Assembly (NCBI GenBank): GCA_902826605.1
Contig: CADEFM010000010.1
Span: forward strand, 62,279 to 126,278
Length of the DNA stretch: 64,000 nucleotides
Reading direction: 5' to 3'
Source: an uncultured Acidobacteriota bacterium
GTDB taxonomy: Bacteria; Acidobacteriota; Terriglobia; Bryobacterales; Bryobacteraceae
Shown: positions 15,462-39,203 of the stretch, one piece after another
How the letters are laid out: each line of letters starts with the position of its first letter
Numbering within the stretch: position 1 is the first letter of the stretch
Notes under the pieces: generated by a model
The model's database searches: none
What the model saw: the letters and a program-made list of their open reading frames with translations, nothing else
What the model was told of the DNA's origin: nothing
Program-made: the position numbers and the translations under genes

Positions 15462-16489
15462 CCGGCGTGACCCGTCCGCTTTTGAGCCGCGTTGCCGACG
15501 CCCTTTACTGGATGGGGCGCTACATGGAACGGGCGGAGAGCGTCGCGCGTTTCATCGGTGTGAATCTGAACCTGCAACTGGATTTGCCGCTCGATCCGGC
15601 GCGGCAATGGCAGCCGCTGATCGACACCAGCGGAGACACGGAGGTTTTCAAAGAAAGGTACGGCGCCGCAACCCAGGATAGCGTCATTGAGTTTCTGGCT
15701 TACGACACCGAGAACCCCAATTCGATCTATTCCTGCCTGACGTCCGCCCGCGAAAACGCGCGCTCCGTGCGCGAGACCATCTCATCGGAAATGTGGGCTC
15801 AAGTCAACAGCATGTACCTACAGGTGCAGTCCCAGCGGGAGATGCCGGACCCCGAATGGCTGCCCGAAGTGTTCCGCAGCATCCGTCTTGGTTCGCACAT
15901 GTTTCAGGGCGTCACCGACGCCACGATGTCGCACAGCGAGGCGTGGCACTTTGTCCGGCTGGGCCGTAAGCTGGAGCGCGCGGATAAAACATCGCGCATC
16001 TTAGACGTGAAATATTTCATGCTCTTGCCTTCCTTGCGCGACGTGGGAACGCCGTATGACGATATTCAATGGTCCGCCGTGCTTCGCTCCGTGAGTGCGT
16101 TCGAGATGTATCGCAAGAAATATGGGCGGATCGCCCCGCGCGAAATTGTGGAGTTTCTGGTGTTGGACCGTGAGTTTCCGCGCTCCGTGCACTATTGCAT
16201 CCGCACGGCGGATGAATCTTTGCATGCGATCACCGGGGCGCCTATGGGATCGTATAGGTACCCTTCCGAGCAGTACATTGGACTGTTGCGATCGGAACTC
16301 GATTTCATGTCGGTGGAATCCATCATCGGACAGGGAATCCACGAATACCTCGATGCCCTGCAAGTGAAAATGAATACCATCGATAGCAGCGTCGCAAACG
16401 ATTTCGTGGCCCGGATTCCACAGGACCAGACTGCACCATCGCAGTCCCAATCCCAATCCCAAGCTCAGGCCGGAAGAAGCAGCCGCTGA
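15458..16489 (+). CDS. alpha-E domain protein (DUF403)
   Basis: [20 protein letters not shown] is the hallmark alpha-E N-terminus. It is translationally coupled on both sides. Confidence 0.8.
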
Positions 16490-19800: not shown

Positions 19801-19801
19801 C

Positions 19802-22339: not shown

Positions 22340-22347
22340 TCGGCGCC

Positions 22348-23217
22348 ATGCTCTATCAGGCAACCCACATCACCCGCTACCGCTATGACGAACCCGTTTC
22401 GCATTGCCTGAATGAGGCCCGGCTGACGCCTCGCAATTTCCCCGGGCAAGTACTGCATCAATCGCGGCTGCATGTGGAGCCCGAACCGGCGATGATGGAG
22501 CGCCGCAAGGATTATTTCGGCAACGATGTGACCACGTTCGCGGTGTTTCGCACGCACGATCTTTTTTCGGCCACGGCCACCAGCGTGGTGGAGGTGCAGG
22601 CCCGGCCGTTTGCCGATACACCACGAATCCCTTGGGAAGATGCGCGCGATCAGTTGAGCCATCACGCCACGGATGATTTGTTGGAAGCCTATGAATTTGT
22701 GTTCGACTCTCCGTTCGTCGCGTCCGCGCGTCCGCTTCTGGAGTACGCTCTGCCCAGCTTTACCACTGGCCGGCCGTTGCTCGATGCGGCGGAGGAACTA
22801 TCACACCGCATCCACAGCGACTTCCGCTACGAGCCAGAATCCACTTCGATCGATATGCCTTTGCTCGAAGTCTTCGAGCATCGTCAAGGTGTATGTCAGG
22901 ATTTTGCCCATATCATGATCGGAGCGCTACGATCTTTGGGTCTGGCCGTGCGCTATGTGAGCGGATATCTGCGCAGTGGCGCAACTTATCAGGGCGCGGA
23001 CGCATCCCACGCATGGGTGTCCGTCTTCGTCCCAGGCGCTGGATGGACGGACTTCGATCCCACCAATGACGTGCGGCCCTCCGAGGGTCATCTTACGCTC
23101 GGCTGGGGCCGCGACTACAGTGATGTTACTCCCATGAAGGGAATTGCACTCGGGGGCGGGAAGCAGATCGTGGAAGTGGAAGTGCGCGTGGAGCCATTGG
23201 CGCGAACGTCCGAGTAG
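22348..23217 (+). CDS. transglutaminase family protein (Bact_transglu_N + transglutaminase core)
   Basis: YQATHITRYRYDEPV N-domain. The core is GVCQDFAHIMIGALRSLGLAVRYVSGY...HAWVSVFVPGAGWTDFDPTN. Confidence 0.85.
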   Translation: MLYQATHITRYRYDEPVSHCLNEARLTPRNFPGQVLHQSRLHVEPEPAMMERRKDYFGNDVTTFAVFRTHDLFSATATSVVEVQARPFADTPRIPWEDARDQLSHHATDDLLEAYEFVFDSPFVASARPLLEYALPSFTTGRPLLDAAEELSHRIHSDFRYEPESTSIDMPLLEVFEHRQGVCQDFAHIMIGALRSLGLAVRYVSGYLRSGATYQGADASHAWVSVFVPGAGWTDFDPTNDVRPSEGHLTLGWGRDYSDVTPMKGIALGGGKQIVEVEVRVEPLARTSE

Positions 23218-23230: not shown

Positions 23231-24880
23231 TCATGCACCCAGTACTACGCGTTGATGCGCGATGCGAGCCACGGCCGGGCGGTGCGTGATGACAATCGCG
23301 GTACGCCCTCTTAGAGCAGCTTCCAAGGTGTCCGCGATGGCTTGTTCATTCACGTCATCAAGGGATGAAGTCGGTTCATCAAGGATAAGGACTTTGGGGT
23401 CCGCCAGCAGTGCGCGGGCCAGCGCTAGTCTTTGGCGTTCGCCTGCGGAGAGCGTCTGCCCTCGTTCAGCAAGCGTGGTGCGATAACCCTCCGGCAGTAA
23501 CAGAATGCGTTCGTGAATTGACGCGGCCTGCGCGGCTGCGGTGATTTCATTTTCGGTTGCGTCCGGGCGGGCGTAGGCGATGTTTTCCTGGACGGTTGCG
23601 TGAAATAGATAGGGGTTCTGGTCCAGCAGCATCACGGAACGTCGAAGGTCTCCCAGACGCAACTCCCGAAGATCTGTCCCATCCAGGCGAATCGACCCCG
23701 AGTCCGGATCGTAGAGACGGATCAGGAGATCCGCGAGAGTGGATTTGCCGATGCCGCTTGGGCCCACAATCGCGCAGATGGACCCGGCTGGCACGTGGAA
23801 CGATAAATCACGGAACAACTGATGGTCGCGATGACGAAAGGCGAGAGAATCGCATTCTATTTCGCCGCGCACGGAAATCAAACCTCGCGCCCCTGGAATT
23901 TCCAAAACCTCGGGAGTCGCGTCAAAAAGCTCCCATACGCGTGATAGCGATACACCGCCAGAAATCAAACTGCTATAGAGGCTCATCAGATTTTGCAACG
24001 GCGCCAACAGGCGCGCATGGTAGGCCATCAATGCGACCAGGGTGCCGGTGGTGATCTGGCCGTCGATCACGAGTTTGCCGCCATACAAAAACAAAGCAGC
24101 GGTGCACAGCGTGAGGACGACACCCGGCACGGCGCCGGATAGAAACGATGTCAATTGCATCTTTAACAGCGCATCTACGAACTCTCGATTCCGGCTTTGA
24201 AAGCGTTTCACTTCCCGGCTTTCCGCGCTGGTGGCGATAACGACGCGCATGCCCAGCAGTGTTTCCAGAAGGAAGCTGCCGATCTCCGAGCTCCGCTCGC
24301 GAACCGTGCGGACGCGATCCGCCAACCGTTGCTGATAGTGCGCAAGCGCCCATACACTGACGGGCAGGAAGGCCACGCTCACCAGGAACAGCTTCCAATA
24401 CAGGGACGCCATGATCGCCGCACTGCCTACAAGAAACACAATATTCGAGAAGATACTCAACACGGAATCGGCGGAAACACGCTGCACTTCCGCTACGTCG
24501 TTGTTGATTCGAGACACCACGTCGCCCAGCTTCATAGTCGTCCAAAACCGTGGTGACAGTGTTTGAAGGTGCCGATAGAGCGCCAAACGCATATCGAAAA
24601 GGACTGCGGCCGAAACCCGCACATACTGGTAGCTGGATAAAATGTTGAGCGCGAAACTGAGAATTGCCGCGACCACCAGCAAAACGCTGATTTCAACGAG
24701 CGCTCCAAAATTCCGCCGCAACAGCGCCTCGTCAATGAGAAGCTTCGATATGTAGGGTTGCGCCAGCCCGAAGGATGTCGCGACGATCCCTGTGAACATC
24801 ACCAACGCAAGCTTAGGCCAGTACGGAATCGCGAAGCGCAGCGCCCGGCGATAGCCCGCGAGAGGGAATTCATTCTGCAT
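23231..24880 (-). CDS. ABC exporter, fused permease/ATPase (MsbA-like)
   Basis: The N-terminal domain has six TM segments. Walker A is GPSGIGKST, the signature is LSAGERQR and Walker B is LILDEPTS. It is convergent with the transglutaminase gene across a 13-nt gap. Confidence 0.85.
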   Translation of the reverse strand: MQNEFPLAGYRRALRFAIPYWPKLALVMFTGIVATSFGLAQPYISKLLIDEALLRRNFGALVEISVLLVVAAILSFALNILSSYQYVRVSAAVLFDMRLALYRHLQTLSPRFWTTMKLGDVVSRINNDVAEVQRVSADSVLSIFSNIVFLVGSAAIMASLYWKLFLVSVAFLPVSVWALAHYQQRLADRVRTVRERSSEIGSFLLETLLGMRVVIATSAESREVKRFQSRNREFVDALLKMQLTSFLSGAVPGVVLTLCTAALFLYGGKLVIDGQITTGTLVALMAYHARLLAPLQNLMSLYSSLISGGVSLSRVWELFDATPEVLEIPGARGLISVRGEIECDSLAFRHRDHQLFRDLSFHVPAGSICAIVGPSGIGKSTLADLLIRLYDPDSGSIRLDGTDLRELRLGDLRRSVMLLDQNPYLFHATVQENIAYARPDATENEITAAAQAASIHERILLLPEGYRTTLAERGQTLSAGERQRLALARALLADPKVLILDEPTSSLDDVNEQAIADTLEAALRGRTAIVITHRPAVARIAHQRVVLGA

Positions 24881-26147: not shown

Positions 26148-29100
26148 ATGTCCACAAGTTTACGCATAATATGTCTGTTTTTCTGTTGGCTATTTGCCAC
26201 CGCTCTGGCCGTTGCGCAATCCACGTACGGGACGATTTTGGGAACTGTAAAAGATCCTTCTGGATCCTTCGTGGCGCAAGCCAAGGTGAAAGTAGTGAAT
26301 CAGGGCACCTCAGCCGAGCGCTCCGCCACCACCGATGATAACGGCGCGTACCTGGTGCCTAACCTGGAGCCTGCGATTTACAAAGTGACCATCGACGCCA
26401 CCGGATTCGCGATGCGCACTGTTGAAAAAGTTGAGCTTGGCGCACGGCAGACTTTGCGCGTGGACGCAGCGATCGATCTGGTTTCTGTTACCGAGTCGGT
26501 GAACGTCAACGCCTCCGCCGGGCCGATGATCAATACGGAAACTTCGACGATCGCTCAGACCAAAAGCGGAAGCGATCTCATCAACCTGCCGGTAACGCTG
26601 GGCGCTCGCGCGGCTGGCTCCACCAGTCCGATGTCTACGCTGACAGCCCAGCCGGGAGTTCAGACCGACGCGCAGGGCAACATGTCGGTGGCGGGCGGGC
26701 AGCCCAGCCAGCTCTCGGTAAGCGTCGATGGCATCAGCAGCGTGGGCGTGCGTACTAGCGGTCCGCTGAACGAGTTGTTCCCATCGATGGACACCATCGC
26801 GGAAATTCGCATCAATCAGGTGAACAACAGCGCGGAATACGGATCGGTATCCGACATCACGACCATATCGAAGAGCGGAACCAATCGCTTCCACGGCGGG
26901 GGCTTCTGGAATTTTCAGAGCTCCGCGATGGAAGCGCGAAATCCTTTCGCCGCCACCAAGCCGTTCAAGGTGATGAACGACGTCGGCGGAAGTATTGGCG
27001 GACCGTTGATCAAGGACAAAACCTTCTTCTTCGCGGCGGTTGAGGGCCTGCGTCTCCCCAATCAGCGCCTGGTGGTGCAGAGCGTACCGTCCATGGCGTT
27101 CCGTAACGGCGATCTTTCCAGCATCGCGACGGCAATCTACGATCCTTCCACCGGTCTGCCGTTTCCGAATAACCAGATCCCGGTCAGCCCGGTCGCGGCG
27201 AACCTCCTGAGACTGGTGATGCCCGTCCCGAACACCGGCGCGGCGAATCTGCAAGCCAATAACTATCGCGAGCTCTTTCGCATTCCCATCAATACCAACC
27301 AGGGCGATATTCGCGTCGACCACACCTTGAGTGACCGCCAGAACCTGTTCGTGCGGTTCACCTACAAAGACGTCGATTCCACCACCAGTCCCGGGCAGAC
27401 CAGTCCCACCATCTCGGCGCTGGCTGGCACAATTCGCGTTCCCGAGCAGGTCGCCGCCCTGACGGTGGCGCACAACATGGTACTCAAACCTACGCTGTTC
27501 AATGAAATTCGGGCCGGCTTCACCGGCCGCAATTTCCTGCGTACTTACGAGCAAGACGCGGCGACGTTGATTAGTCAGATGGGCATCACCGGCCTAGCTG
27601 CGCCTCCTGCGGGCGCGGCTCTTCCGGACGTTCAAATCGCCGGATATCAGAGAGTCGGCGGCCTTGCGGAATCGGCCACTCGCGACCGCACGTTTCAGCT
27701 TCTGGATAACGTCACCTGGACTAAGGGTTCGCACACGCTGAAGTTCGGCGGTGATATCCGTTACATGCGCGGCACGTCCGTCAACGTATTTGGCACGCGG
27801 CGTCTCGGGGTTTACATTTTCGATGGTTCGGTGACCGGCGTCGCCGCCAGTGGGCAGAATCATCCCTTGATCGGCAACACGTTTGCAGCGTTCCTTCTCG
27901 GCGTGCCGGATTCCACGTCCAATGCGGATGTAAAGGTCGCGGACTTGCGGGCGTACGCGACGCACTGGGCGGGCTATGCGCAAGACGACTGGAAGGTCAC
28001 TTCCCGGCTCACTTTGAACTACGGCTTGCGCTGGGAATATCATCCGATGTTCAAGGACAAGCTGCTGAACGTCACCAACTTCATGACCGATTACGTCGGT
28101 TTCAATAACGGCCAGCCCGTGCGTGGAGCGGTGGTGGTGCCCAACGAAGAATCGCGCGCCCTGACGGCGCCCGGGTTCGCCACCTCAATCGGCAATACCC
28201 CGATTCTGACAGCCGCGGAGGCGGGCATTCCGGAATCGCTGCGGTTTACGCAGAGGACCAGTTTCGCGCCGCGTTTTGGCTTTGCATGGAGGCCGTCCAG
28301 CGACGAAAAGACAGTGATCCGCGGCGGCGTGGGCCGCTACATCGTCACCCTGATGGGCGGCTTGGTCGGAGCGCAATGGGGCGTGCACGCCTCCAACGTT
28401 ACGCTGTTCTCGCAGCAGGTAGTGAACGGCGCGCCGCTGCTGCAATTTCCGTCGCCCTTCCTCACGGGATCGGCCACTGTCGGTACGCAAAACTTCCAAC
28501 AAGCGCAGCAAATTGATTACAAAGACCCGTACGTCTATCAGTGGAATCTCACGATCGAGCGAGAAATCGCACGCAACACGGGGATCCGTCTTTCGTACAA
28601 CGGCTCTCAGGGAAACCGGCTCTCCGTTCCAGTCGACTACAACCAGGTTCCCGCGAACACCATCGGGTATAACGCGGCGAAGCTGAGCCGGCCCTTTACG
28701 AACTGGGCAAAGGTACAGGCCATCACGAATGGCGCGGAAGCCCGCTTTCATTCGGTGACCATTGAAGGCAATCGCCGCATGTCCGCAGGAGTGCAGTTCC
28801 AGGCATCGTACTCGCTTTCGAAGAATCTTTCGAACGTGAACGGCATCGCGCCCACCAACTTCGCGACCGAGAATGGCAACATCATCAGCGACCGGTTTAA
28901 CCCTGGTATCGATATTGGCAACGTGGCGTACACGCGCCGTCATCGGTTCCTGACTACCTTCACCGTGCAGCTTCCATTCGGCAAAGGCCGGCCGTTGTTC
29001 GGCAACTCGTCGAAACTTGTGGATACCGTCATCGGGGGATGGGACGTGGCTGGCGTAACCTTGATGCAGTCCGGTCCTTTTCAGACTGCCCAAATCAACG

Positions 29101-29519
29101 GCGCCGATCCCTCCGGCACGGGTTTGCCGACCTTGTGCGCGTGTAACGTCCGTCCGGACATCGTGAGCGGGATGACGGGCAATCTGCCGGCCGATCAGCG
29201 CAGCATTGACCGCTGGTTCGATCCCGCGGCTTTCGTCCGGCCCCCGAACAATATCGGCCGTTTCGGAAGCGCGCCGGTGGGCAATCTGATTGGTCCGGGC
29301 ACCGTGGTGCTGTCCGCTTCGGTGAGCAAGAAATTCGTGATCTCGGAATCGATCGGAGTGATGTTCGCGGCACAGGCGACCAATCTGCTGAACCACCAAA
29401 ACTACGACGTTCCGAATACCGTTGTGGGCACCGCGAATTATGGCCGCATTTCAAATCTGCAATCGGCAGAAGGCGCGGGTCCAAGGGTGATGCAGTTGGT
29501 ACTGCGTCTTACGTTCTAG
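26148..29519 (+). CDS. TonB-dependent receptor with N-terminal carboxypeptidase-regulatory-like domain
   Basis: 1123 aa with a signal peptide. CarboxypepD_reg pattern is GTILGTVKDPSGSFVAQAKVKVVNQGT...TDDNGAYLVPNLEPAIYKV. The beta-barrel body ends in a C-terminal Phe (LRLTF). Confidence 0.85.
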   Translation: MSTSLRIICLFFCWLFATALAVAQSTYGTILGTVKDPSGSFVAQAKVKVVNQGTSAERSATTDDNGAYLVPNLEPAIYKVTIDATGFAMRTVEKVELGARQTLRVDAAIDLVSVTESVNVNASAGPMINTETSTIAQTKSGSDLINLPVTLGARAAGSTSPMSTLTAQPGVQTDAQGNMSVAGGQPSQLSVSVDGISSVGVRTSGPLNELFPSMDTIAEIRINQVNNSAEYGSVSDITTISKSGTNRFHGGGFWNFQSSAMEARNPFAATKPFKVMNDVGGSIGGPLIKDKTFFFAAVEGLRLPNQRLVVQSVPSMAFRNGDLSSIATAIYDPSTGLPFPNNQIPVSPVAANLLRLVMPVPNTGAANLQANNYRELFRIPINTNQGDIRVDHTLSDRQNLFVRFTYKDVDSTTSPGQTSPTISALAGTIRVPEQVAALTVAHNMVLKPTLFNEIRAGFTGRNFLRTYEQDAATLISQMGITGLAAPPAGAALPDVQIAGYQRVGGLAESATRDRTFQLLDNVTWTKGSHTLKFGGDIRYMRGTSVNVFGTRRLGVYIFDGSVTGVAASGQNHPLIGNTFAAFLLGVPDSTSNADVKVADLRAYATHWAGYAQDDWKVTSRLTLNYGLRWEYHPMFKDKLLNVTNFMTDYVGFNNGQPVRGAVVVPNEESRALTAPGFATSIGNTPILTAAEAGIPESLRFTQRTSFAPRFGFAWRPSSDEKTVIRGGVGRYIVTLMGGLVGAQWGVHASNVTLFSQQVVNGAPLLQFPSPFLTGSATVGTQNFQQAQQIDYKDPYVYQWNLTIEREIARNTGIRLSYNGSQGNRLSVPVDYNQVPANTIGYNAAKLSRPFTNWAKVQAITNGAEARFHSVTIEGNRRMSAGVQFQASYSLSKNLSNVNGIAPTNFATENGNIISDRFNPGIDIGNVAYTRRHRFLTTFTVQLPFGKGRPLFGNSSKLVDTVIGGWDVAGVTLMQSGPFQTAQINGADPSGTGLPTLCACNVRPDIVSGMTGNLPADQRSIDRWFDPAAFVRPPNNIGRFGSAPVGNLIGPGTVVLSASVSKKFVISESIGVMFAAQATNLLNHQNYDVPNTVVGTANYGRISNLQSAEGAGPRVMQLVLRLTF

Positions 29520-29542: not shown

Positions 29543-31324
29543 ATGGATCTCAATCACAAACAACTTCGATTCGTGGCTCTCACGTTCGTGGGGTGCATGA
29601 CTCTTCTTCCGGTGGCCGCGCAAACCGCGGCTCCGGAGGGAATCCCCATCGACCACCAGCTCACCATTCAGAAATGCGGCGGCTGCCATCAGCGCGATTC
29701 CAGCGGCATGATGCGCAGGCTTTCGTATATCCGCACCAGTCCGGAAGTCTGGGAACAGGCCATCAAACGGATGGTGCGTTTGAATGGGGTCAGCATGACC
29801 CCGGTGGAGGCGCGCGAGATCCTGAAGTATCTCACCACGAACAATGGGTTGGCTCCCGAAGAAGTAAAGCCCATCTTCTGGGAAGCCGAGCACCGCATGT
29901 CGCGCGATCAATCGGACAAGATCCCGAACGACGCGCTGCAACATACCTGCAACTTCTGTCACAACATCGGGCGCGTTCTATCGCAACGGCGGACGCGGGA
30001 CGACTACCAAAAACTGACGGCCATGCACGTGGGCATGTTCCCGGGGGCGGAGAACGTGTTTCGCCCGCGCCGGCCCACGGGGCGCGAGCAGGAGCCTCCG
30101 GCCCGGACCTTCGCGGTGGGCAGCGGGAATCCCGCCGCTGAAGTGCTGGCCGGCCCAACCGCGGCGAGAGCCGATGCGAAGTACCCGGTGGATATCGCCA
30201 TCGATTATCTGGCGAAGGCGCAGCCGCTGATGACGCCGGAATGGGTTGCGTGGAAATCCGCGATGAAGGCGCCGAAGCTGGCTGGAAAATGGCTGCTGAC
30301 CGGCTATCAAGTCGGCAAGGGGCGGATCTTTGGAACGTTGACCGTCGATCCAGGCCCTTCACCGGAAGACTTCATAACCAAGTTAGAGATCGAGTACGCG
30401 TCGACGGGACAGACGTTCACGCGGACCGGGAAAGGTCTCGTCTACACCGGTTTCAACTGGCGCGGCCGCAGCACCATGCCGAAGACCGATGTCGACCCTA
30501 CCCATAACCCCGCGGAGTGGCGCGAAGCGCTGTTTGTCTCGCGCGACGGAAACAGCATGGATGGCCGTTGGTTCTGGGGCGAATATCAGGAGTTCGGCAT
30601 CGATGCACACCTGGTGCGGATCGGAACACAGCCGCTGCTCGCGGGAGCTAGCGTCTTTTCGCTCATGTCGCCCTCGACCACCGAGATGAAACTCTACGGC
30701 GCGAACTTTCCGGCAACGCTGAAGCCCGCGGACTTCGATTTCGGAAGCGGTGTGACGGTCAAGCGCATCGTGAAAACCACTCCGGGCGTGGTGACCGTGG
30801 AAGTGGAAACCGCCGCGAAACTGCCGACCGGAATTCGAGACGTGGCCCTGGCGCACTCCGTCGCGGAAAAGGCGCTGGCCATTTACGACAAGCCGGCCTA
30901 TATCAAAGTGATGCCCGACGCGAATATGGCGCGGCTGGGCGGAATCACCACCGGGAAGCAATTCGCTCAGTTTGAGGTCATCGCGTACGCGGCCGGCGCG
31001 GACGGGAAGCCGCAAACCGCCGACGACGTGCCGTTAGGCCCCGTCAAGGCCAACTGGGGAATGGATGAGTTTCCTTCCACGCCCGGCGATGACGATGTGA
31101 AGTTCGTCGGCAACGTCGATCAAGACGGCATGTTCACGCCGGCGGTCGAAGGTCCGAATCCGGAACGCAAACAGCAATCGAACAACTATCCGACCAACAA
31201 TTGGGGTGACATCTGGGTATCGGCGACCTACGACGCGGGCGGGACGAAGCTAAAGGCCCGCTCTTACCTGGTGGTGACGATCCCAACTTATGTTCGCTAT
31301 GACCAGCCGGAGGTGGGGCAATGA
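29543..31324 (+). CDS. qhpA: quinohemoprotein amine dehydrogenase alpha subunit (dihaem cytochrome c subunit)
   Basis: Signal peptide is present with two CXXCH motifs (CGGCH, CNFCH) in the N-terminal roughly 140 aa. It is followed by the diagnostic order radical SAM/SPASM, small Cys-rich peptide, propeller. The stop overlaps the qhpD start. Confidence 0.8.
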   Translation: MDLNHKQLRFVALTFVGCMTLLPVAAQTAAPEGIPIDHQLTIQKCGGCHQRDSSGMMRRLSYIRTSPEVWEQAIKRMVRLNGVSMTPVEAREILKYLTTNNGLAPEEVKPIFWEAEHRMSRDQSDKIPNDALQHTCNFCHNIGRVLSQRRTRDDYQKLTAMHVGMFPGAENVFRPRRPTGREQEPPARTFAVGSGNPAAEVLAGPTAARADAKYPVDIAIDYLAKAQPLMTPEWVAWKSAMKAPKLAGKWLLTGYQVGKGRIFGTLTVDPGPSPEDFITKLEIEYASTGQTFTRTGKGLVYTGFNWRGRSTMPKTDVDPTHNPAEWREALFVSRDGNSMDGRWFWGEYQEFGIDAHLVRIGTQPLLAGASVFSLMSPSTTEMKLYGANFPATLKPADFDFGSGVTVKRIVKTTPGVVTVEVETAAKLPTGIRDVALAHSVAEKALAIYDKPAYIKVMPDANMARLGGITTGKQFAQFEVIAYAAGADGKPQTADDVPLGPVKANWGMDEFPSTPGDDDVKFVGNVDQDGMFTPAVEGPNPERKQQSNNYPTNNWGDIWVSATYDAGGTKLKARSYLVVTIPTYVRYDQPEVGQ

Positions 31325-32763
31325 GCACTGTAGCCGAACTGGCGCCGTCGTATCAGCTGTGCGAGCATCACGCGTTCGAAGCGGCGGGGACCGAATTCCT
31401 GTACCTGGTTCCCAGCGGCGCCATCTTCGCGCTGGATCCACTTGGAAAAGAAGTCATCTCGCGAGTATCCGAACGCTCCTACACGCGTGAGGAACTCGTC
31501 GGCAGATTGAGTGACCGCTACAAGCCGCGCCAGGTGGAAACCGTGCTCACCGAACTCGAGCACTCCGATGTCATCTCCTTCGGCACGCCCGAGATGCAGC
31601 TCCCCAAGGTGCCTGAACGCACCTTCCCGCTGCAGCGCATCGTGCTGAACGTGACGAACCAGTGCAACCTGGCATGCACCTACTGTTACGAATATTCGGC
31701 CGACAGAATCAGCCAAACCGAAGGCAAACCCAAGCATATGAATCACCAGGTGGCCGAGGCCGCCATCGATCTGCTGATTCACGAATCAGGACAAAGGCGT
31801 GCGATTCACGTGACGTTCTTCGGCGGCGAAACGCTATTGAACTTTTCCGTCATGCGAACCTCCGTCGCTTATGCAAAACGAAAAGCAGCGGAGGCTGGCA
31901 AGTACGTCGAGTTCAGTCTGACCACGAACGCGACGCTGCTTACCGAGGAAATCGTCGACTTCCTTTCAGAGCACCACATTGGCGTCACAGTGAGTATCGA
32001 TGGCGACCAGGAGCTCAACGACAAGATGCGCGTGTTCAAGGACGGGCGCGGCAGCTACGACGTGATCGTGCCTCGCATTAAAATGCTGCTCGCACGGCAC
32101 CGGACCAACTCCATTGGAGCGCGCGTCACACTTAGCTCCGGGGTATCGCATGTCCGCCGCATCTACAATCACCTGACGCAGGAAGTAGGCTTCGACGCGG
32201 CCGGATTCTCGCCGGCCACTGCGAATCCAAGCCGCCTCTATTCCATCGGCACTCAAAAGATGGAAGCGGTACTCGGTGGATTCGAAGAGCTGGCATGGGA
32301 ATACCGGGACTTCGCGGTTGCGGGGAAAGTTCACGGCTTCACCAACGCGAACGACACGATCAAGGAATTGCACTCCGGCATCAGCAAAGCCTACCCCTGC
32401 GGAGCGGGGCTCGGGCTGTTGGGCGTGGGTACGGCAGGCGACATCAGCTTGTGCCACCGCTTCGTCGATTCGCCGGTCGGCAAAATGGGTCACGTCATGA
32501 ACGGAGGCGTGGATCACGACGCCCGAGGGGAGTTTTTGACTACCCACCACTTGGGCGCGCGCACGGATTGCCACACCTGCTGGGCCCGGCCGGTTTGCGC
32601 GGGCGGCTGTTACCACGAGGCCTATATCCACTATGGAGAAACTTCCGCGGCGACGTTGCACTACTGCGACTGGATCCGCAACTGGAATGACTTGTGCTTA
32701 CGGATTTACGGCGAGATCAGCGTCACGAATCCGTCGTTCTTGGACCGCTTTAACGAAAACTAG
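31321..32763 (+). CDS. qhpD: radical SAM/SPASM maturase of the QHNDH gamma subunit
   Basis: Radical SAM motif NVTNQCNLACTYCYE. The C-terminal SPASM-type Cys cluster is CHRF...CHTCWARPVCAGGCYHE. It sits between qhpA and the small peptide gene. Confidence 0.85.
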   Translation: MSTVAELAPSYQLCEHHAFEAAGTEFLYLVPSGAIFALDPLGKEVISRVSERSYTREELVGRLSDRYKPRQVETVLTELEHSDVISFGTPEMQLPKVPERTFPLQRIVLNVTNQCNLACTYCYEYSADRISQTEGKPKHMNHQVAEAAIDLLIHESGQRRAIHVTFFGGETLLNFSVMRTSVAYAKRKAAEAGKYVEFSLTTNATLLTEEIVDFLSEHHIGVTVSIDGDQELNDKMRVFKDGRGSYDVIVPRIKMLLARHRTNSIGARVTLSSGVSHVRRIYNHLTQEVGFDAAGFSPATANPSRLYSIGTQKMEAVLGGFEELAWEYRDFAVAGKVHGFTNANDTIKELHSGISKAYPCGAGLGLLGVGTAGDISLCHRFVDSPVGKMGHVMNGGVDHDARGEFLTTHHLGARTDCHTCWARPVCAGGCYHEAYIHYGETSAATLHYCDWIRNWNDLCLRIYGEISVTNPSFLDRFNEN

Positions 32764-32786: not shown

Positions 32787-33125
32787 ATGAATTCCATGAG
32801 AGCCATCAATCGCAAGGCACGCAAGGTGGAAGACCTGGTGATTGCGGAGACCGGGGAAGTGCAGGCGCTACAGGCCCGCGGAGGGGAAGGCAAAATCTAC
32901 TATCCGATGGGCTGCACGCTGAACTTCACGCCCGGCTGGGAAATCGATGTTTCCGGCGGAACCGCCGGCTTATGCCAACCCGTGGAGCGCGATCTCTTCG
33001 ATTGCCACCTGGGTTGTGGATGGCCCGCGCAGGTACCGGATCACCTGAATAACGCGGCGCAGTGGACCGACAAGTGCGCCTCGGCCGCCAATGACTGGCG
33101 CAAGGTGGATATCGTTTTTCCGTAA
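32787..33125 (+). CDS. qhpC: quinohemoprotein amine dehydrogenase gamma subunit precursor (CTQ-bearing crosslinked peptide)
   Basis: 112 aa with a leader-like N-terminus, then a Cys/Asp/Glu/Trp-rich core (GCTLNF...GLCQPVERD...CHLGCGWPAQVPD). Cys43-Trp79, Cys63-Asp69 and Cys77-Asp85 have the spacings I recall for the CTQ and thioether crosslinks. Confidence 0.75.
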   Translation: MNSMRAINRKARKVEDLVIAETGEVQALQARGGEGKIYYPMGCTLNFTPGWEIDVSGGTAGLCQPVERDLFDCHLGCGWPAQVPDHLNNAAQWTDKCASAANDWRKVDIVFP

Positions 33126-33171
33126 GGGAAATAGCTTTTGCAATAGAGACGCGAATGGAGGACTCCTTTTC

Positions 33172-34320
33172 ATGAGACTCACTGCCAGAACATTTTCCGT
33201 GGCTTGCTTGCTGGGCGCGCTTTTGTGCGCCCCCGCAGCGTGGGCAGCGGACCTCTTCGCTTACATCGGCACGCTCGACAAAAAGCTGCTGGTGATCGAC
33301 GAAGACAAAGAAGAAGTGGTGGGCGAGATCCAGCTGGGCGGCATTCCGCGCACTGCCGCGTTGTCCGCGGATCAGAAGAAGCTGCACCTGTTCACCACCC
33401 AGATGCTGATTGAGACGGTGGATCTGGAAGCCCGTAAGGTGACCAGCAGCTTCAGCATCTCCGACCCGCGTAGCCGGCCCCGGATCATCGCGAACGCCGC
33501 CGACATGATCAGCTTTGGCGGATCGCTGCGCTATTCGGGCGTCGCCGTCGATCCGAACGGGCGCTACCTGTATACGACGATGCGGGTGGCCTACAAGGAC
33601 ATCGATCAATACCGCCTAGATCCTCCCAAGTTCGTCGCCATCGATTTGCAGGACAAGAAAATCGGCAAGACGTTCGATTTCCCCAAGGACATGGACCAGG
33701 GCTTCGGCTTCGGCGCAACGTACAAGGTTTCGCCGGATGGCAAGCTTCTGTACGTGTTCCAGGAAGACATCCTGGTGTTCGAACTGGACACCTTCAAGAT
33801 GGTGGACAAAATTGAACTATCGCAACCCGAGTATCCCGGTGCATCGCCCTATAGACTGGCGGCGATGGAAGACCCCTATGACGCCCCCAATACCGCTACT
33901 TCGGTGTTCACCTCCGTGGACAACATCGTCCGGAAGGGCACGCTGGGTCTCGCCACCATCGACCTGACGGCGAAGAAAGTGGACTATGTGCCGATTGGGC
34001 CATCGCTCCCCATGATCGGCTTCATGGTGTCGCCGGACCGCAAGCGGGGCTATTCCGTGATGCCCACCGTCGGCACGGGCGGCAACCGCATTACGGAGTG
34101 GTGGGTGTGGGACATTGCGAGCCACAAAGTAATTCGCAAAAAGGAATTCGAATCGCGCCCGACGTTCCGCTTTTCCATTGCCAGCGACGGCAAGAAGCTG
34201 TACCTGTTCGGCGCTGGCTCCACGCTTGAGATCTGGGATGCGGACAAGCTGGAATCGCGCAAGCTGATTTTCTTGAACAAAGACACGACCACCAACCTGA
34301 TCACGATCGCGCAGCGTTAA
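33172..34320 (+). CDS. qhpB: quinohemoprotein amine dehydrogenase beta subunit (beta-propeller)
   Basis: ATG at 33172 follows GGAGGA. Signal peptide is MRLTARTFSVACLLGALLCAPAAWA. The repeated propeller-like sequence and the position after qhpC fit qhpB. Confidence 0.7.
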   Translation: MRLTARTFSVACLLGALLCAPAAWAADLFAYIGTLDKKLLVIDEDKEEVVGEIQLGGIPRTAALSADQKKLHLFTTQMLIETVDLEARKVTSSFSISDPRSRPRIIANAADMISFGGSLRYSGVAVDPNGRYLYTTMRVAYKDIDQYRLDPPKFVAIDLQDKKIGKTFDFPKDMDQGFGFGATYKVSPDGKLLYVFQEDILVFELDTFKMVDKIELSQPEYPGASPYRLAAMEDPYDAPNTATSVFTSVDNIVRKGTLGLATIDLTAKKVDYVPIGPSLPMIGFMVSPDRKRGYSVMPTVGTGGNRITEWWVWDIASHKVIRKKEFESRPTFRFSIASDGKKLYLFGAGSTLEIWDADKLESRKLIFLNKDTTTNLITIAQR

Positions 34321-34359
34321 ATCGGGTTGCATGGATCTTTATAGAAAGGAGCATGGCAA

Positions 34360-35322
34360 ATGGAATGGACCCTGCATGTCTCCCAGCCAGGAGATGTAAG
34401 GGCCGACTTTCTGCCGTCGGAGTGCGCTCGCCAGAGCGCTTCCTCGGCGGATTCCCGGATCCAGAAAACCATGAGCGTACCCTTCCGTCTCATGGACGAA
34501 GTCTACGGCCGGATCCACGCGTCGCGCATCGCGTTTGGTACGGAGTTCTGCGAGAATCTGATCGGCGATCCCCACCCGCTGACGGCCGTGCTCGCGGAAG
34601 TCCGCCGCCAAGGCCTGGACTTCACATTTCTAACGCCTTACGTGAGTGACCGCGGCATCGCGCGGCTGCGGCCTTTGTTCGCGGTGCTGCTCACTCACGC
34701 GGAGCGCGTGGGACGCCCCATGGAGGTCGTTTTTAACGATTGGGGCGTGCTGCGTCTCCTGCGGAGGGAGTTTCCGGAACTGGAGCCTGTGCAAGGCCGG
34801 CTCCTCAACAAAAGCCTGCGGGATCCGCGGATTACCGGGCTTTTGCCGGACTCTCCCTCTGGACTGATTCAACTCAGCACAACCGCCGCGCTGAAGCAGA
34901 CCAACCTCGATTCCAGCGGCTATGTTCAATTGCTGCTCGAAATGGGGGTGGGGCGAGTCGAGCTCGACAATCTCCCGCAAGGCCTGGATTTGGAAGCCGT
35001 GCCACCGGAGCTGAAGATCGGAGTCTATGTGCCATTCGGTTTCGTCGCGACGGCTCGTGCTTGTATGGCCGCCGGACTGGGATATGAGGCGGCGCAGAAG
35101 TTCGTGCACGGGGCGTCGTGCAAACAAGAATGCCAGACCCATCACCTGATCTACACCTACACGAATTCGCCGTTCCCGAACCGCGATCAGGAATTTTATC
35201 TGAAAGGCAATACCTATTTCTACGGCCACACCGACAAAATGTTGCGCAATATCGACGCACACGCGCTCGAAGGCCGGATTGACCGGTTCATGTTTCAACC
35301 ACACCTGCCCATGTGGAACTGA
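34360..35322 (+). CDS. divergent U32-family (UbiV-like) protein with 4-Cys pattern
   Basis: AAGGAG lies 8 nt upstream of the ATG. The pattern parallels E. coli UbiV as I recall it: FGTEFCENL (first Cys), VVFNDWGVL, GRLLNKS, then TARAC...GASCKQEC (C, C-x3-C). No signal peptide. Confidence 0.55.
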   Translation: MEWTLHVSQPGDVRADFLPSECARQSASSADSRIQKTMSVPFRLMDEVYGRIHASRIAFGTEFCENLIGDPHPLTAVLAEVRRQGLDFTFLTPYVSDRGIARLRPLFAVLLTHAERVGRPMEVVFNDWGVLRLLRREFPELEPVQGRLLNKSLRDPRITGLLPDSPSGLIQLSTTAALKQTNLDSSGYVQLLLEMGVGRVELDNLPQGLDLEAVPPELKIGVYVPFGFVATARACMAAGLGYEAAQKFVHGASCKQECQTHHLIYTYTNSPFPNRDQEFYLKGNTYFYGHTDKMLRNIDAHALEGRIDRFMFQPHLPMWN

Positions 35323-35330
35323 GAGCTGCC

Positions 35331-36383
35331 ATGAAGATTCTTGCCCCTATAAAATCGCATGATGAGCTCGAAATGCTGGTGGAGAGCGGCGCGGAGGAGC
35401 TGTACTGCGGCATCACGCCGGAAGAATGGCAGCAGGAATATAGCGGAGCGGCCTGGCTCAGCCGCCGCAGTCCCAAGGGTGGCGGATTTGAAAGCTGGAG
35501 TGAGTTACGCAAGACCGTGGACGACGCGCATCGCGCCGGCTTGCACGTCTTCATCACGTTGAACGCGCCGTTCTATACCACCGCGCAGATGGATTCCGTG
35601 GTCAAGATCGCGCATCGCTTGGACGACGAGATCGGCGCTGACGCGTTGATCATCGCTGACCCGAATTTGTTGCTGCGCATGCGTCAGGAAAAGATTCGCG
35701 CCGCGTTGCATGTCAGCTCCGTTGCGGCGGCATTAAACTCGGAAGCCATCCGGTTTCTGCTTGATTTCGGAGTCAAACGGGTGGTGCTTCCCCGCAGCGT
35801 GGGCCTCTCGGAAATCGAAGCGATCGTGAACGCAGTCCGCGGGGAAGTGGAGATTGAAACGTTCATCCTGAATGACGGATGCGCTTTCGAGGAAGGGTTT
35901 TGCTCCACCACGCATCATCACGCCGTAGGTGCGTTCTGCACCGGCCTCTCCGGCATGGACACGGAGTTCGAAGGCGTGGCCGGGCAGGATTTGACCTATT
36001 CGCAAACCGTCAAGCTGAAGCGCAATCTTCTGGATTATTGGAAATATATCTGGTATCTCAACGGAAATGGCTGTTCGACGGCTCCGAACGGCTTGCCGTA
36101 CGGCCCATGCGGCCTGTGCGCCATCAAGGATCTGATGCGCATCGGCGTCGATTCGCTGAAGATCGTCGGCCGCGAGTCCGGACCGTTTAAGAAATTGGCC
36201 AGCGTGAAGATGGTGGCCGACATCGTTCGCAAAGCGCGGGCCGGCGCGGACCGCTTGTATTTGATCGAGCGGGCACGCTCGCTGCGAAATACGCAGGAGC
36301 ATTGCGATGCCGGATTCATGTGCTACTACCGCGGTGAGAGTCCGGTTCCGGAAGAGGAAGCGCTTCTGGAGCAAACTGCATGA
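35331..36383 (+). CDS. peptidase U32 family protein (UbiU-like, 4-Cys Fe-S motif)
   Basis: It is collinear with UbiU/U32: MKILAPIKSHDELEMLVESGAEELY, FITLNAPF, GADALIIADPNLL, HVSS..LNSEAIRFLLDFGVKRVVLPR, ETFILNDGCAFEEGFCS, AFC, GPCGLC, LKIVGRES. The stop overlaps the qhpE-like start (ATGA). Confidence 0.8.
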   Translation: MKILAPIKSHDELEMLVESGAEELYCGITPEEWQQEYSGAAWLSRRSPKGGGFESWSELRKTVDDAHRAGLHVFITLNAPFYTTAQMDSVVKIAHRLDDEIGADALIIADPNLLLRMRQEKIRAALHVSSVAAALNSEAIRFLLDFGVKRVVLPRSVGLSEIEAIVNAVRGEVEIETFILNDGCAFEEGFCSTTHHHAVGAFCTGLSGMDTEFEGVAGQDLTYSQTVKLKRNLLDYWKYIWYLNGNGCSTAPNGLPYGPCGLCAIKDLMRIGVDSLKIVGRESGPFKKLASVKMVADIVRKARAGADRLYLIERARSLRNTQEHCDAGFMCYYRGESPVPEEEALLEQTA

Positions 36384-37075
36384 GCATCCGGATCGCGGTG
36401 GTGGATAGCGGCGTTCATCTGCAGCACCCGCACATCATTGCCCGGACCCACGGCGTCGCGATCGGCGCCGAAGATTCCGATCCATCGTTCGCGGACGGTT
36501 TGGGGCACGGCACCGCAGTGATGGCTGCCATTCAGGAAAAAGCTCCGCACGCGGAATATTACGCCGTGAAAATCTTCGGTGATTGTTTGCGCACCACCGT
36601 GGATCATCTGGTGCGCGGCATCGATTGGGCCATCGAAAATCGTATGCACCTGGTCAACTTGAGCCTTGGCGTCACCGGTCCGCAGTACCAGCCGCTGCTC
36701 GCGGACGTAGTCCATCGGGCCCGTGCAGCAGGCGTGATCCTGGTCTCGGCCTGGGAAGCCGGCGGCAAGCGCGCGATGCCTGGCTGCATGGACGGAGTGA
36801 TTGGCGTGGAACTCGATTGGGACTTGCCGCGCAGCCGCTTTCGCGTGATGGACGGCGGCCCTGTTCGATTTGCCGCTTCGGGTTATCCCAGAACTCTGCC
36901 GGGAGTCCCGCCGGAGCGCAATCTGAACGGCATCAGTTTCGCGGTCGCCAATATGACCGGCTTCGCCGCACAGGCCCTGCAGCGCAGAGGTGCGGCATCG
37001 GTGGACGAACTGATCGAAACCCTCCGCGATGGGTCGCGGATTTTCGACGACGTGCCGGAACTCGTGAATTCATGA
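36380..37075 (+). CDS. qhpE: subtilisin-like (S8) serine peptidase, QhpE-like leader peptidase
   Basis: The Asp region is IAVVDSGV and the His region is GHGTAVMAAI. It is small (231 aa), cytoplasmic and located in the qhp operon. Confidence 0.6.
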   Translation: MSIRIAVVDSGVHLQHPHIIARTHGVAIGAEDSDPSFADGLGHGTAVMAAIQEKAPHAEYYAVKIFGDCLRTTVDHLVRGIDWAIENRMHLVNLSLGVTGPQYQPLLADVVHRARAAGVILVSAWEAGGKRAMPGCMDGVIGVELDWDLPRSRFRVMDGGPVRFAASGYPRTLPGVPPERNLNGISFAVANMTGFAAQALQRRGAASVDELIETLRDGSRIFDDVPELVNS

Positions 37076-38493
37076 AGCAGCTCATCGCAGCCCTTTTCCT
37101 TTGTGCTCCGCTCACGTTCGCCGGCGGTGCGCCCTTTTCTGTGGAAGCGCGGGAAGACGTCAGCGCCGATTTCCCGGGCGCGCCGCGTCTGCACTCCTTC
37201 GCGTTCGCGCAGTGGCAGGGCAAGTGGGTTTTCATCGGAGGCCGCACGAACGGGTACCACAGCGTGGGCGGCGGTCCCGCCGAGTTCATGCGCGCGGATG
37301 CGAATGACCAGGTGTGGGTGATCGATACCACCGTGCATCCCGCGCGCACTTATCACGCGCCCGTGGCGGATCTGCCCGCGTCGCACGTCGCCGTCAAGGA
37401 TCAGTGGATCGCCTCCGCGTTCAGTCGCATTCAGGTGGGCGACAAACTCTACATCGCTGGCGGCTATGGTCAGGATCACACGGGTAGCTGGGTCACCCAT
37501 GCGCTTCTCTCGGTGGTATCCATCCCGGCTTTGGTTGAAGGAGTGATGCACGGCAAGGTCCCTCCTGAAAGCGTCCGCTTTCTGGAAACGCCATGGGTGC
37601 AATCGGCGGGTGGCGGGCTGATCAAGATCCCCGGCGGCAATTTCTATCTGGTGATGGGTCACGTGTTCACCGGAAGCTATACCGCATTTGAAGGCAACGC
37701 GGAAGAAAACACCAAACATGCCAGCCAGATCTATCTGGAGGAAGTCCGCGAACTGAAGATCACCGAAGGCGAAGAGATCGCAGTGGAGCTTCTGCAACGA
37801 TTTCACGATTCGGAATTCCATCGACGCGATCTGAATGTAGTTCCACTGTACTCTCCAAAGGGTGCCGGATTCGCTGCCTACGGTGGCGTCTTCACGCCGC
37901 GCACCCAGCTGAACTATACCAAGCCAGTCTACATGGTGCCCGGCCAAGGCCTCTTCGTCGATTCCATCTTTGAACAAAAAATGCACTCCTACAGTACCGC
38001 CCGCTTGCTCCTGTATGACAAGGCGAAAGCCACCATGTACACGACATTTTTCGGAGGCATCAGCCGGAACTTCTGGGACGCATATGCAAAAGCATTTGTG
38101 GAGTATCCGACGCACGGCGACCGCAATGCGGCCGTCTATTTGGACGGTTTGCAGTGGAATGACCAGATTTCCTCGTTAGCGCGCGGAATGAATGAGTCGG
38201 ATGGCAAGACCGTCGAATGGGTCCACGCGGCTGAGTTGCCAGCCTATCTGGGCACGGATGGATTCTTTATTCCTCGGGATGACCTTGCCGAAGTTGACCC
38301 GGGCACGCAGATCCTGGATCTCGGCCCGCTGCGCGGCAAGCGAACGTTGGTGGGGTATTTATACGGAGGCATTCGCGCCTTTCCGTATCGTTTCCCCTAC
38401 GACAAATCGGCTCAGCCGTACAACGCGGGAACGATTCCAAGCAAGGCGAGCGAGTCCATTTTAAATGTGTATTTGACGGTGCCCGGCGAATAG
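37072..38493 (+). CDS. secreted Kelch-like beta-propeller protein of unknown function
   Basis: ATG 37072 overlaps the qhpE-like stop (ATGA). Signal peptide is MKQLIAALFLCAPLTFAGG. GG-containing blade motifs recur (WVFIGGRTNG, LYIAGGYGQD, AAYGGVF, TFFGGIS, YLYGGIRA). The upstream 163 codons of ORF 36583..38493 are an out-of-frame overlap with qhpE. Confidence 0.6.
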   Translation: MKQLIAALFLCAPLTFAGGAPFSVEAREDVSADFPGAPRLHSFAFAQWQGKWVFIGGRTNGYHSVGGGPAEFMRADANDQVWVIDTTVHPARTYHAPVADLPASHVAVKDQWIASAFSRIQVGDKLYIAGGYGQDHTGSWVTHALLSVVSIPALVEGVMHGKVPPESVRFLETPWVQSAGGGLIKIPGGNFYLVMGHVFTGSYTAFEGNAEENTKHASQIYLEEVRELKITEGEEIAVELLQRFHDSEFHRRDLNVVPLYSPKGAGFAAYGGVFTPRTQLNYTKPVYMVPGQGLFVDSIFEQKMHSYSTARLLLYDKAKATMYTTFFGGISRNFWDAYAKAFVEYPTHGDRNAAVYLDGLQWNDQISSLARGMNESDGKTVEWVHAAELPAYLGTDGFFIPRDDLAEVDPGTQILDLGPLRGKRTLVGYLYGGIRAFPYRFPYDKSAQPYNAGTIPSKASESILNVYLTVPGE

Positions 38494-38564: not shown

Positions 38565-39203
38565 ATGTTTGCGCGTCTACTGGCAATTGTTTGCCTGCTC
38601 TGCGTGAGCACTAGTTCGGGAAGGGCTGCGTCGCTCCCTCGGGTGGAGACTACGCTAGCTGTGCATCTGCAGGCGAATGCAGCATTTTCACCCGAAATAC
38701 GCAATCAAATGAAAATGGAGTTGGACTCCATCTTGGAGCCCGCCGCTATCCGCATCTTCTGGCTCGATGCTCAGGAATCCCGCGATTTCAGATCTATGCG
38801 TGTTGAGTTAAAAGGATCGTGCGGTGTGCCCAATCATGCGGACGGACATGCAGTTCTTGGCGCAATCCCCGCTTCGGCTCTGGCATCCACGTCTGTTTAC
38901 AAAGACAGCATTCTACCGTCGAGCTGGGTAAACTGCGACACGCTGAATCGTTTGCTGCTCAGTTCCATTGCATTACAGCCCAAGTGGATTCGTGATTACG
39001 CATATGGACGCGCGATGGCCCGCGTGCTCGCGCATGAAATTTATCACATTCTGGCCCAGACTCAAGTGCATACTTCGACCGGAGTCGCCAAAGAATCGGT
39101 GAGTGCGGCGGACCTTGTCTCCTCTCGGTTCGTATTTAACTCTGAAGCGATTATTGGACTCAGATCGCACAACCGTGTCCTGCTTGGCGCTGCGAAAAAC
39201 TAA
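38565..39203 (+). CDS. hypothetical secreted protein with HExxH motif
   Basis: Signal peptide is MFARLLAIVCLLCVSTSSGRAAS. The only recognisable motif is a single LAHEIYHIL (HExxH). Confidence 0.5.
   Translation: MFARLLAIVCLLCVSTSSGRAASLPRVETTLAVHLQANAAFSPEIRNQMKMELDSILEPAAIRIFWLDAQESRDFRSMRVELKGSCGVPNHADGHAVLGAIPASALASTSVYKDSILPSSWVNCDTLNRLLLSSIALQPKWIRDYAYGRAMARVLAHEIYHILAQTQVHTSTGVAKESVSAADLVSSRFVFNSEAIIGLRSHNRVLLGAAKN

Follow-up and report, generated by a model that had tools for sequence, protein, structure and literature searches.

A U32 family protein and a conserved cysteine-rich neighbour as a candidate replacement for the tryptophan hydroxylase QhpG in acidobacterial amine dehydrogenase operons

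Which enzyme hydroxylates the cofactor tryptophan (Trp) of a quinohemoprotein amine dehydrogenase when the operon has no gene for the hydroxylase QhpG? The question is raised by a 64,000 nucleotide (nt) stretch of contig CADEFM010000010.1 (assembly GCA_902826605.1) from a member of the Bryobacteraceae (Acidobacteriota), hereafter the window. Biogenesis of cysteine tryptophylquinone is currently described as dependent on QhpG, and in canonical qhp systems this flavin monooxygenase dihydroxylates the Trp en route to the quinone, with both oxygens coming from O2 (PMC7876137). In the window the gene order is qhpA-D-C-B-[ORF5-ORF6]-E, all on the forward strand, where ORF5 (320 amino acids, aa) and ORF6 (350 aa) are two open reading frames (ORFs) that a preliminary description had read as a UbiV-like and a UbiU-like protein of the U32 family and proposed as a substitute for QhpG. 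We put the probability that ORF5 and ORF6 form a U32-type iron-sulfur (Fe-S) peptidyl-tryptophan dihydroxylase, a non-orthologous replacement of QhpG, at roughly 0.6.

QhpA, QhpD, QhpC and QhpE of the window all pass their NCBIfam cut-offs, while the QhpB-like protein falls below its own and is placed by position (Table 1). The pair is packed tightly among these genes. An AAGGAG sequence (34346-34351) lies 8 nt ahead of the ORF5 ATG at 34360, 8 nt separate the ORF5 TGA (35320-35322) from the ORF6 ATG at 35331, and ATGA overlaps join ORF6 to qhpE at 36380 and qhpE to ORF8 at 37072. These coordinates and signals were re-read in the sequence and agree throughout with the first account of the locus. 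Judged from this spacing, ORF5 and ORF6 are translationally coupled with the qhp genes. The absence of a qhpG-like gene, on which the original proposal turned, also holds for the window, where no QhpG-like ORF was found by a search that detects QhpG or a QhpG-like protein in 31 loci lacking the pair. The flavoproteins of the window, together with one just past its right end, were considered as a hidden QhpG and rejected, as they are ThiO-like, GMC-type and HpnE proteins instead.

ORF6 is a member of the U32 family that is UbiU-like, belongs to a separate subfamily and is not an orthologue of UbiU. We place it in the family because it matches PF01136 (Peptidase_U32) at 115.4 bits (cut-off 22.4) over model positions 2-231 of 233, is 27% identical to Escherichia coli UbiU (BLASTP, E 2e-18) and has a U32 structure as its clear top fold match, results that bear out the earlier statement that it is collinear with U32 proteins. 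The AlphaFold 2 (AF2) model of ORF6 (predicted local distance difference test, pLDDT, 79.8) retrieved 5d88, the sole solved U32 structure, as its top Foldseek match (E 1.7e-8; template modelling score, TMt, 0.61), approximately 100-fold better than the next. PF01136 was found in 120/120 homologues, and homologues of ORF6 fall into 704 clusters at 90% identity. The best NCBIfam match is the UbiU model NF047963, at 95.8 bits against a cut-off of 440, and it covers only residues 1-193 of ORF6 (model positions 1-178 of 331). On the TrhP model ORF6 scores 71 bits against a cut-off of 534.

Eight cysteines (Cys) of ORF6, at positions 184, 191, 203, 248, 260, 263, 325 and 331, are invariant in the 120 homologues. 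C184, C191 and C203 (CX6CX11C) occupy the same alignment columns as C169, C176 and C193 of UbiU, which are three of its four experimentally defined [4Fe-4S] ligands (PMC6747719). Four UbiU-type Cys had been claimed, the last of them in the motif GPCGLC. The first three stand, but the assignment of GPCGLC is uncertain: the fourth UbiU ligand, C232, sits within an insertion that could not be aligned, and in ORF6 C248 is the invariant Cys that comes next. Invariant C248, C260 and C263 are the candidates for a fourth ligand. For comparison, the [4Fe-4S] motif of the U32 family reads CX6CX15-16C with a fourth Cys. Five Cys follow the three aligned with UbiU, in the motifs NGNGC, GPCGLC and HC-x5-C. 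One of these five presumably completes a UbiU-type cluster, and to judge from their number the others would suffice to bind a further Fe-S cluster or zinc, at a site that UbiU does not have.

The Pfam name of the family leads to a different explanation, that ORF6 is a true collagenase-like U32 peptidase that cleaves QhpC or another subunit together with ORF5. The members PrtC and HP0169 have been reported as collagenases, and a few loci with the pair have no qhpE nearby (L008/L009). However, the dedicated leader peptidase QhpE is retained in most loci with the pair, what these loci lack by comparison with canonical clusters is qhpG rather than qhpE, and the invariant Cys motifs fit the Fe-S hydroxylase subfamilies. 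We consider a peptidase role very improbable.

ORF5 is the less conventional of the two proteins, and its description as UbiV-like or U32 holds in part. The Cys motifs that were cited are real, and C64 (FGTEFC), C235 (ARAC), C254 and C258 (SC-x3-C) do not vary among 120 homologues, from a family of 607 clusters at 90% identity. Their layout, C-Xn-C-X18-C-X3-C, fits the architecture of UbiV as a pattern match for which the alignment has no statistical support. In UbiV, the ligands C39, C180, C193 and C197 form CXnCX12CX3C, with the first Cys far upstream (PMC6747719). The AF2 model of ORF5 is a triosephosphate isomerase (TIM) barrel (pLDDT 79.1; predicted template modelling score, pTM, 0.80), with low confidence only near the Cys-rich loops.

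The part of the description that did not hold is similarity to UbiV or to U32 at a significant level, and the searches concerned weigh, if weakly, against a U32 origin of ORF5. Searches of Pfam and NCBIfam gave no match to ORF5, and PF01136 was not detected in 20 members of its family even at E up to 10. BLASTP found no match between ORF5 and UbiV, hhalign with small and large alignments gave a probability of 0.8%, and the 0.3 bits that an ORF5 hidden Markov model (HMM) scored on UbiV were matched by 49/2000 shuffled sequences (p ~0.025). The top Foldseek match of the ORF5 model is again 5d88 (E 7.1e-4, TMt 0.48), with unrelated TIM barrels nearly equal. An ORF5 profile returned only spurious calbindin matches from the PDB. 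A semi-global shuffle test, in which end gaps were free, gave trivial overlaps for everything except the ORF6-UbiU positive control. Enlarging the UbiV profile gained nothing; among the matches listed, all had 85% identity or more except for a misassembled sequence at 73%. Motif correspondences in a MAFFT alignment of ORF5 with UbiV (NDWGV/SDLGV, VQGRLLN/VAGHALN, FYLKGN/FVLNG and C235/C180) carry no statistic and were not counted as evidence.

The best signal for ORF5, itself below threshold, came from comparison with the ORF6 family, where hhalign aligned 207 collinear columns (probability 11.5%, E 0.0026) and set C235 and C254 of ORF5 on C191 and C203 of ORF6. For calibration, the ORF6 and UbiV families, both accepted as U32, reached only 6.6% in hhalign and did not detect each other with HMMER. 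As two proteins that are both U32 barely match, the non-significance of the ORF5 comparisons is weak evidence against homology. We regard homology of ORF5 to U32 proteins as plausible, though statistically not significant at the level of profiles and models, and ORF5 as probably a divergent, U32-derived partner in the style of UbiV.

The question of whether the pair belongs to the qhp operon was addressed in 160 loci, 80 anchored on QhpC and 80 metagenome loci anchored on ORF5. The former were the closest 80 loci in a QhpC-alignment scan of GTDB species genomes, came from Acidobacteriota and Gemmatimonadota, and had their ORFs classified by BLAST and HMM. The canonical gene order was taken from the literature (PMC7876137), as this survey covered those two phyla and no proteobacterial clusters. 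The scan pattern was C[WF]WPA[QH]VP, to which the window's own CGWPAQVP does not fit. Among the QhpC-anchored loci, 12/80 have the pair, 9/80 have a full-length QhpG (NF049967, 218 bits), 22/80 have a shorter, divergent QhpG-like protein (57 bits on NF049967) and 37/80 have neither, many of these on truncated contigs.

Where the pair is present, it is conserved as part of the cluster, which upholds the expectation that it would be kept in orthologous qhp clusters. Exact-protein look-ups of homologues on long Acidobacteriota contigs gave the order qhpA-D-C-B-ORF5-U32-(F)-(E). Among ORF5-anchored metagenome loci with enough sequence on the relevant side, the U32 gene is next in 57/61 and qhpB is upstream in 48/50, qhpC is present in 36/39, and qhpE or qhpF follows the pair in 20/23. 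In some relatives the ORF5 and U32 genes overlap by 4 nt. Adjacency kept across families of this size is far more than chance would produce. Distance matrices of QhpD, ORF5, the U32 protein and QhpB from 28 loci with the pair are correlated (r = 0.85-0.91); conservation is higher in the U32 protein than in QhpD, and QhpB is the fastest-evolving of the four (mean distance 0.42). This co-divergence with QhpD and QhpB indicates that the pair and the cluster have been passed on together, under strong constraint. The adjacency of the two genes, their 8-nt gap or 4-nt overlap and their co-divergence (r = 0.85) lend indirect support to a heterodimer of ORF5 and ORF6.

These data also bear on the suggestion that the pair is an unrelated neighbour with, for example, a housekeeping role in hydroxylating RNA or quinones. 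U32 proteins are indeed widespread, and TrhP, RlhA and UbiU/V are housekeeping members. We give such a neighbour next to no credence, given how constantly qhpB and qhpC accompany ORF5, the translational coupling to qhp genes, the co-divergence with QhpD and QhpB (r ~0.9) and ORF6 scores that lie far under the equivalog cut-offs of both UbiU and TrhP.

Several loci differ from the common arrangement. Small genes are inserted in compact qhp operons in L005 (8410-8805 and 10945-11580), L095, L096, L097, L106, L126 and L168. The inserts of L005 are PDDEXK_3 and Uma2-family endonuclease-like genes, and in L005 and several metagenome loci an insert lies directly between the ORF5 and U32 genes; the qhp operon seems to tolerate or attract small-gene insertions. 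The Terriglobia contig CAWBAE010000012.1 (L080 and L082) carries two qhpC-qhpB copies approximately 11 kb apart; qhpA and qhpD adjoin only one of them, and the pair and QhpG are absent from the surroundings of both. L019 (CAZJQQ010000022.1), L024 and L048, in metagenome-assembled genomes labelled 'uncultured Clostridia' or 'Rhodospirillaceae', have qhp clusters near-identical to those of Acidobacteriota, and mis-binning or mis-classification is likely here rather than a wider taxonomic range.

The distribution of QhpG relative to the pair was examined in informative loci, defined as those with enough flank to cover the usual positions of QhpG-like genes. A QhpG-like gene is present in 0/18 of those with the pair and 26/45 of those without it (Fisher p = 8e-6, a value that ignores shared ancestry). 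No QhpG-like gene was found in the 80 ORF5-anchored metagenome loci, and no locus without the pair contains a U32-like or ORF5-like ORF. In a neighbour-joining tree of QhpD the loci with the pair fall into three groups, one of which mixes loci with the pair, with a QhpG-like gene and with neither; no locus has both. Thus, in the tabulation of qhp clusters that had been proposed as a check, qhpG and the pair never occur together. None of the proposed checks that could be made by computation refuted the replacement.

The short QhpG-like family (~315-375 aa) adjoins many Acidobacteriaceae/Terriglobia qhp clusters, in 22 loci that include L037:13445-14485(-), L030, L033, L034, L039, L043, L044, L047, L056, L057, L059, L060, L066 and L070. 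On the QhpG model its members reach only 57 bits (region 157-324), Pfam gives no match to them, and their N-terminal dinucleotide-binding motif looks degenerate (VVIEGDGMAS). A third type of hydroxylase was also sought in the clusters with neither QhpG nor the pair and was rejected, the genes downstream (sulfatase, urocanase, fumarase, phosphorylase and alcohol dehydrogenase) being unrelated.

The substrate does not change with the exchange of genes. Mature QhpC, including the cofactor Cys and Trp and the thioether residues, is conserved across all classes of locus and is identical between some loci with and without the pair. As the QhpC substrate is the same in both, Trp hydroxylation is still needed where the pair is found. 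In the QhpC of the window, the leader occupies approximately residues 1-38 and the cofactor motif is CHLGCGWPAQVPD, in which Cys73, Cys77, Trp79 and Asp85 are conserved. Residue 78, directly ahead of the cofactor Trp, is Gly. One other locus with the pair shares this Gly (CYLGCGWPAQVPD); the residue is Phe (CFW) in nearly all relatives and Trp (CWW) in the proteobacterial consensus. Because of this Gly, the pattern used in the scan would miss the window itself.

As the only exchange relative to clusters with QhpG is that of QhpG for ORF5 and the U32 gene, with the substrate unchanged, we favour the pair as the replacement for QhpG. In this reading it would be a cytoplasmic, two-subunit Fe-S enzyme, a U32-type 'oxidase' devoted to QhpC maturation, with ORF6 as the proposed catalytic hydroxylase subunit and ORF5 as the proposed Fe-S partner subunit. 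After QhpD has made three thioether crosslinks in QhpC, the pair would hydroxylate the indole of Trp79 at C6 and C7. An organic compound, by analogy with UbiU/UbiV prephenate, would be the oxygen donor instead of O2, and electrons would pass via the predicted [4Fe-4S] clusters of the pair to an acceptor. QhpE would then cut off the leader peptide and the ATP-binding cassette (ABC) exporter would move QhpC to the periplasm; the Cys-Trp link and the quinone would be finished there, in the assembled enzyme. We infer the formation of a heterodimer, the binding of Fe-S clusters and Trp as the substrate from the observations above, and independence of O2 and the nature of the oxygen donor from analogy with known U32 enzymes.

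The proposed replacement accounts for the conservation of the pair, its exclusivity with QhpG at the locus and its invariant Cys, but 19/45 of the informative clusters without the pair also have no QhpG-like gene within ~10 kb. Hydroxylase genes can therefore be unlinked, and local absence of qhpG is not absence from the genome; in the source genome, the absence of QhpG covers ~70 kb around the pair. Other points count against the replacement as well. The exclusivity statistic ignores shared ancestry, UbiU C232 has no aligned counterpart in ORF6 and ORF5 gave no significant match to U32 or UbiV in the searches described above. To our knowledge, the substrates of U32 enzymes are small molecules or RNA and a protein substrate is without precedent. 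Blastocatellia and Bryobacteraceae, the host lineages named here, are soil Acidobacteriota in which the cultured members are largely aerobic, which leaves little obvious reason for a route independent of O2.

The clusters lacking a nearby QhpG-like gene, ~40% of those without the pair, also open the way to a second interpretation, in which the pair is a dedicated maturation factor other than the Trp hydroxylase and a QhpG-type flavoenzyme is encoded elsewhere in the genome. The pair might then supply or drain electrons for QhpD, act as a chaperone of crosslinked QhpC or make a different modification, and the four invariant Cys of ORF6 beyond the UbiU-type set would suit electron transfer. We think this unlikely. 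It predicts that some loci should have both the pair and QhpG, and none was seen among the 18 informative loci with the pair or the 80 anchored on ORF5. Each characterised U32 Fe-S protein is tied to a reaction in which an aromatic or heteroaromatic ring is hydroxylated, and canonical systems work without such an extra factor (PMC7876137).

The nearest parallel to the replacement of QhpG by the pair is found in ubiquinone synthesis, where UbiU and UbiV stand in for the flavin hydroxylases UbiI, UbiH and UbiF during multiple ring hydroxylations, with prephenate as the oxygen donor (PMC6747719, PMC10990095). U32 hydroxylases tend toward low-identity heterodimers with several Fe-S clusters, and the characterised Fe-S proteins of the family (UbiU/V, TrhP and RlhA) are needed for O2-independent hydroxylation of aromatic rings. 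Like E. coli UbiU-UbiV (YhbU/YhbV), ORF5 and ORF6 are low-identity partners encoded by adjacent genes, ORF6 shares three cluster Cys with UbiU and is 27% identical to it, ORF5 has a UbiV-type Cys pattern, and the pair stands where flavin monooxygenases would otherwise add several hydroxyl groups to an aromatic ring en route to a quinone. However, ORF6 is not an orthologue of UbiU (96 bits versus 440) and has four additional invariant Cys, ORF5 has neither significant similarity to UbiV nor a Pfam U32 match, and no UbiT-like SCP2 lipid-binding partner lies beside the pair in the contexts examined. The hosts also differ, the pair being found in Acidobacteriota and UbiU-UbiV in Proteobacteria, and the pair sits in a protein-maturation operon resembling those of peptides that are ribosomally synthesised and post-translationally modified (RiPPs), where the presumed substrate is a peptidyl tryptophan and not a prenylated phenol.

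With QhpG the pair shares the operon context and the inferred step, 6,7-dihydroxylation of Trp in crosslinked QhpC, a cytoplasmic step that precedes leader cleavage and export. The proteins themselves have no homology, QhpG being a single-subunit flavoprotein dependent on flavin adenine dinucleotide (FAD) and the pair a predicted TIM-barrel Fe-S pair. QhpG uses O2 for both oxygens (PMC7876137), whereas the pair, by analogy, is predicted not to. LodB and GoxB, the maturases of the cysteine tryptophylquinone enzymes LodA and GoxA, likewise hydroxylate a Trp destined for this cofactor, but they are O2-using flavoproteins related to QhpG and unrelated to U32. TrhP, TrhP1/TrhP2 (YrrN/YrrO) and RlhA resemble the pair in their U32 domain and conserved Cys motifs, and TrhP1/TrhP2 form a heterodimer. 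All of them act by O2-independent, prephenate-linked hydroxylation of aromatic heterocycles and are required for 5-hydroxyuridine (ho5U) in tRNA or 5-hydroxycytidine (ho5C) in rRNA. They thus act on RNA bases, the TrhP model gives ORF6 only 71 bits, and no protein-cofactor maturation operon encodes any of them.

In openly searchable full text (subscription-only papers being outside the scope of the search), nothing was found that connects the U32 family to quinohemoprotein amine dehydrogenase or tryptophylquinone, in agreement with the preliminary description, whose author was not aware of such a report. U32 is absent from the QhpG paper (PMC7876137) and from a 2025 review of protein-derived cofactors, which names only QhpG and QhpA for the tryptophylquinone step (PMC11951088). 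The main UbiU/UbiV and prephenate papers (PMC6747719, PMC10990095) and the Kimura classification of U32 subfamilies are silent on this amine dehydrogenase, and a 2024 review of U32 oxidases names substrates only from the ubiquinone pathway and RNA. The recruitment of a U32-type, O2-independent hydroxylase system to protein-cofactor biogenesis would be new.

Table 1. Features of the qhp locus, with positions in the window
Feature	Coordinates	Strand	Basis
qhpF-like ABC exporter, fused permease and ATPase	23231..24880	-	PF00664 and PF00005
qhpA, dihaem alpha subunit	29543..31324	+	TIGR03908, 462 bits (cut-off 274); four Pfam QHNDH alpha domains
qhpD, radical SAM/SPASM maturase, thioether crosslinks in QhpC	31321..32763	+	TIGR03906, 564 bits (cut-off 453)
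qhpC, gamma-subunit precursor	32787..33125	+	NF037958, 117 bits (cut-off 50)
qhpB-like beta-propeller subunit, divergent	33172..34320	+	TIGR03907, 61 bits (below cut-off 223); position kept in all loci
ORF5, cytoplasmic, unnamed family, predicted TIM barrel	34360..35322	+	invariant C64, C235, C254, C258
ORF6, Peptidase_U32, UbiU-like non-orthologue	35331..36383	+	PF01136, 115 bits; eight invariant Cys
qhpE, subtilisin-like leader peptidase	36380..37075	+	NF049966, 169 bits (cut-off 165)
ORF8, 473 aa, predicted secreted, no named family	37072..38493	+	ATGA overlap with qhpE

The start codon of the qhpB-like gene is called differently among assemblies, within the range 33091-33208. The qhpF-like gene is divergently placed in the window and lies within the operon in most related loci, where homologues (43-70% identity) are found between the U32 gene and qhpE; its product is, from its domains and these positions, a candidate exporter of processed QhpC. 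ORF8 has an N-terminus resembling a signal peptide and no Pfam or NCBIfam match, and among related loci its homologues were found only in near-identical contigs and L036. It is followed by ORF9 (212 aa, 38565-39203). In L036, a qhp cluster without the pair, homologues of both (49% and 39% identity, respectively) adjoin the cluster, which hints at a loose association of ORF8 and ORF9 with the amine dehydrogenase and none with the pair. As ORF8 is not conserved together with the pair, it is probably accessory or unrelated.

Directly upstream of qhpA, positions 26148-29519 encode a large beta-barrel protein of the outer membrane that has a CarboxypepD_reg domain at its N-terminus, and a similar protein is found near the qhp clusters of 29 related loci. 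We take it to be of the TonB-dependent-receptor-like type that is common in Acidobacteriota, and it could be involved in uptake of the amine substrate. Further upstream (13923-23217) are circularly permuted ATP-grasp, Alpha-E, transglutaminase-like and DUF2126 amidoligase genes that are apparently unrelated to the finding. A scan for promoters and terminators gave counts close to those of shuffled sequence.

We see an even chance that the pair is a U32 Fe-S hydroxylase with a protein substrate, the first of its kind, and acts as an O2-independent (e.g. prephenate-dependent) peptidyl-tryptophan 6,7-dihydroxylase. If so, a protein-derived quinone cofactor would have a route of synthesis independent of oxygen, and tryptophylquinone could be made without O2, in step with QhpD, the oxygen-labile radical S-adenosylmethionine (SAM) enzyme. 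QhpC would provide a soluble, genetically encoded peptide substrate for an in vitro assay of U32 hydroxylases, which the field still wants. We know of no enzyme assigned to the hydroxytryptophans of methyl-coenzyme M reductase. Both 6- and 7-hydroxytryptophan occur in these reductases (PMC11951088), and U32-type enzymes would become candidates for this and other unexplained anaerobic hydroxylations of protein residues. The exchange of a flavin monooxygenase for a U32 pair that is known from ubiquinone synthesis would recur in a second pathway, and the substrate range of the U32 'oxidases' would widen from lipids and RNA to proteins.

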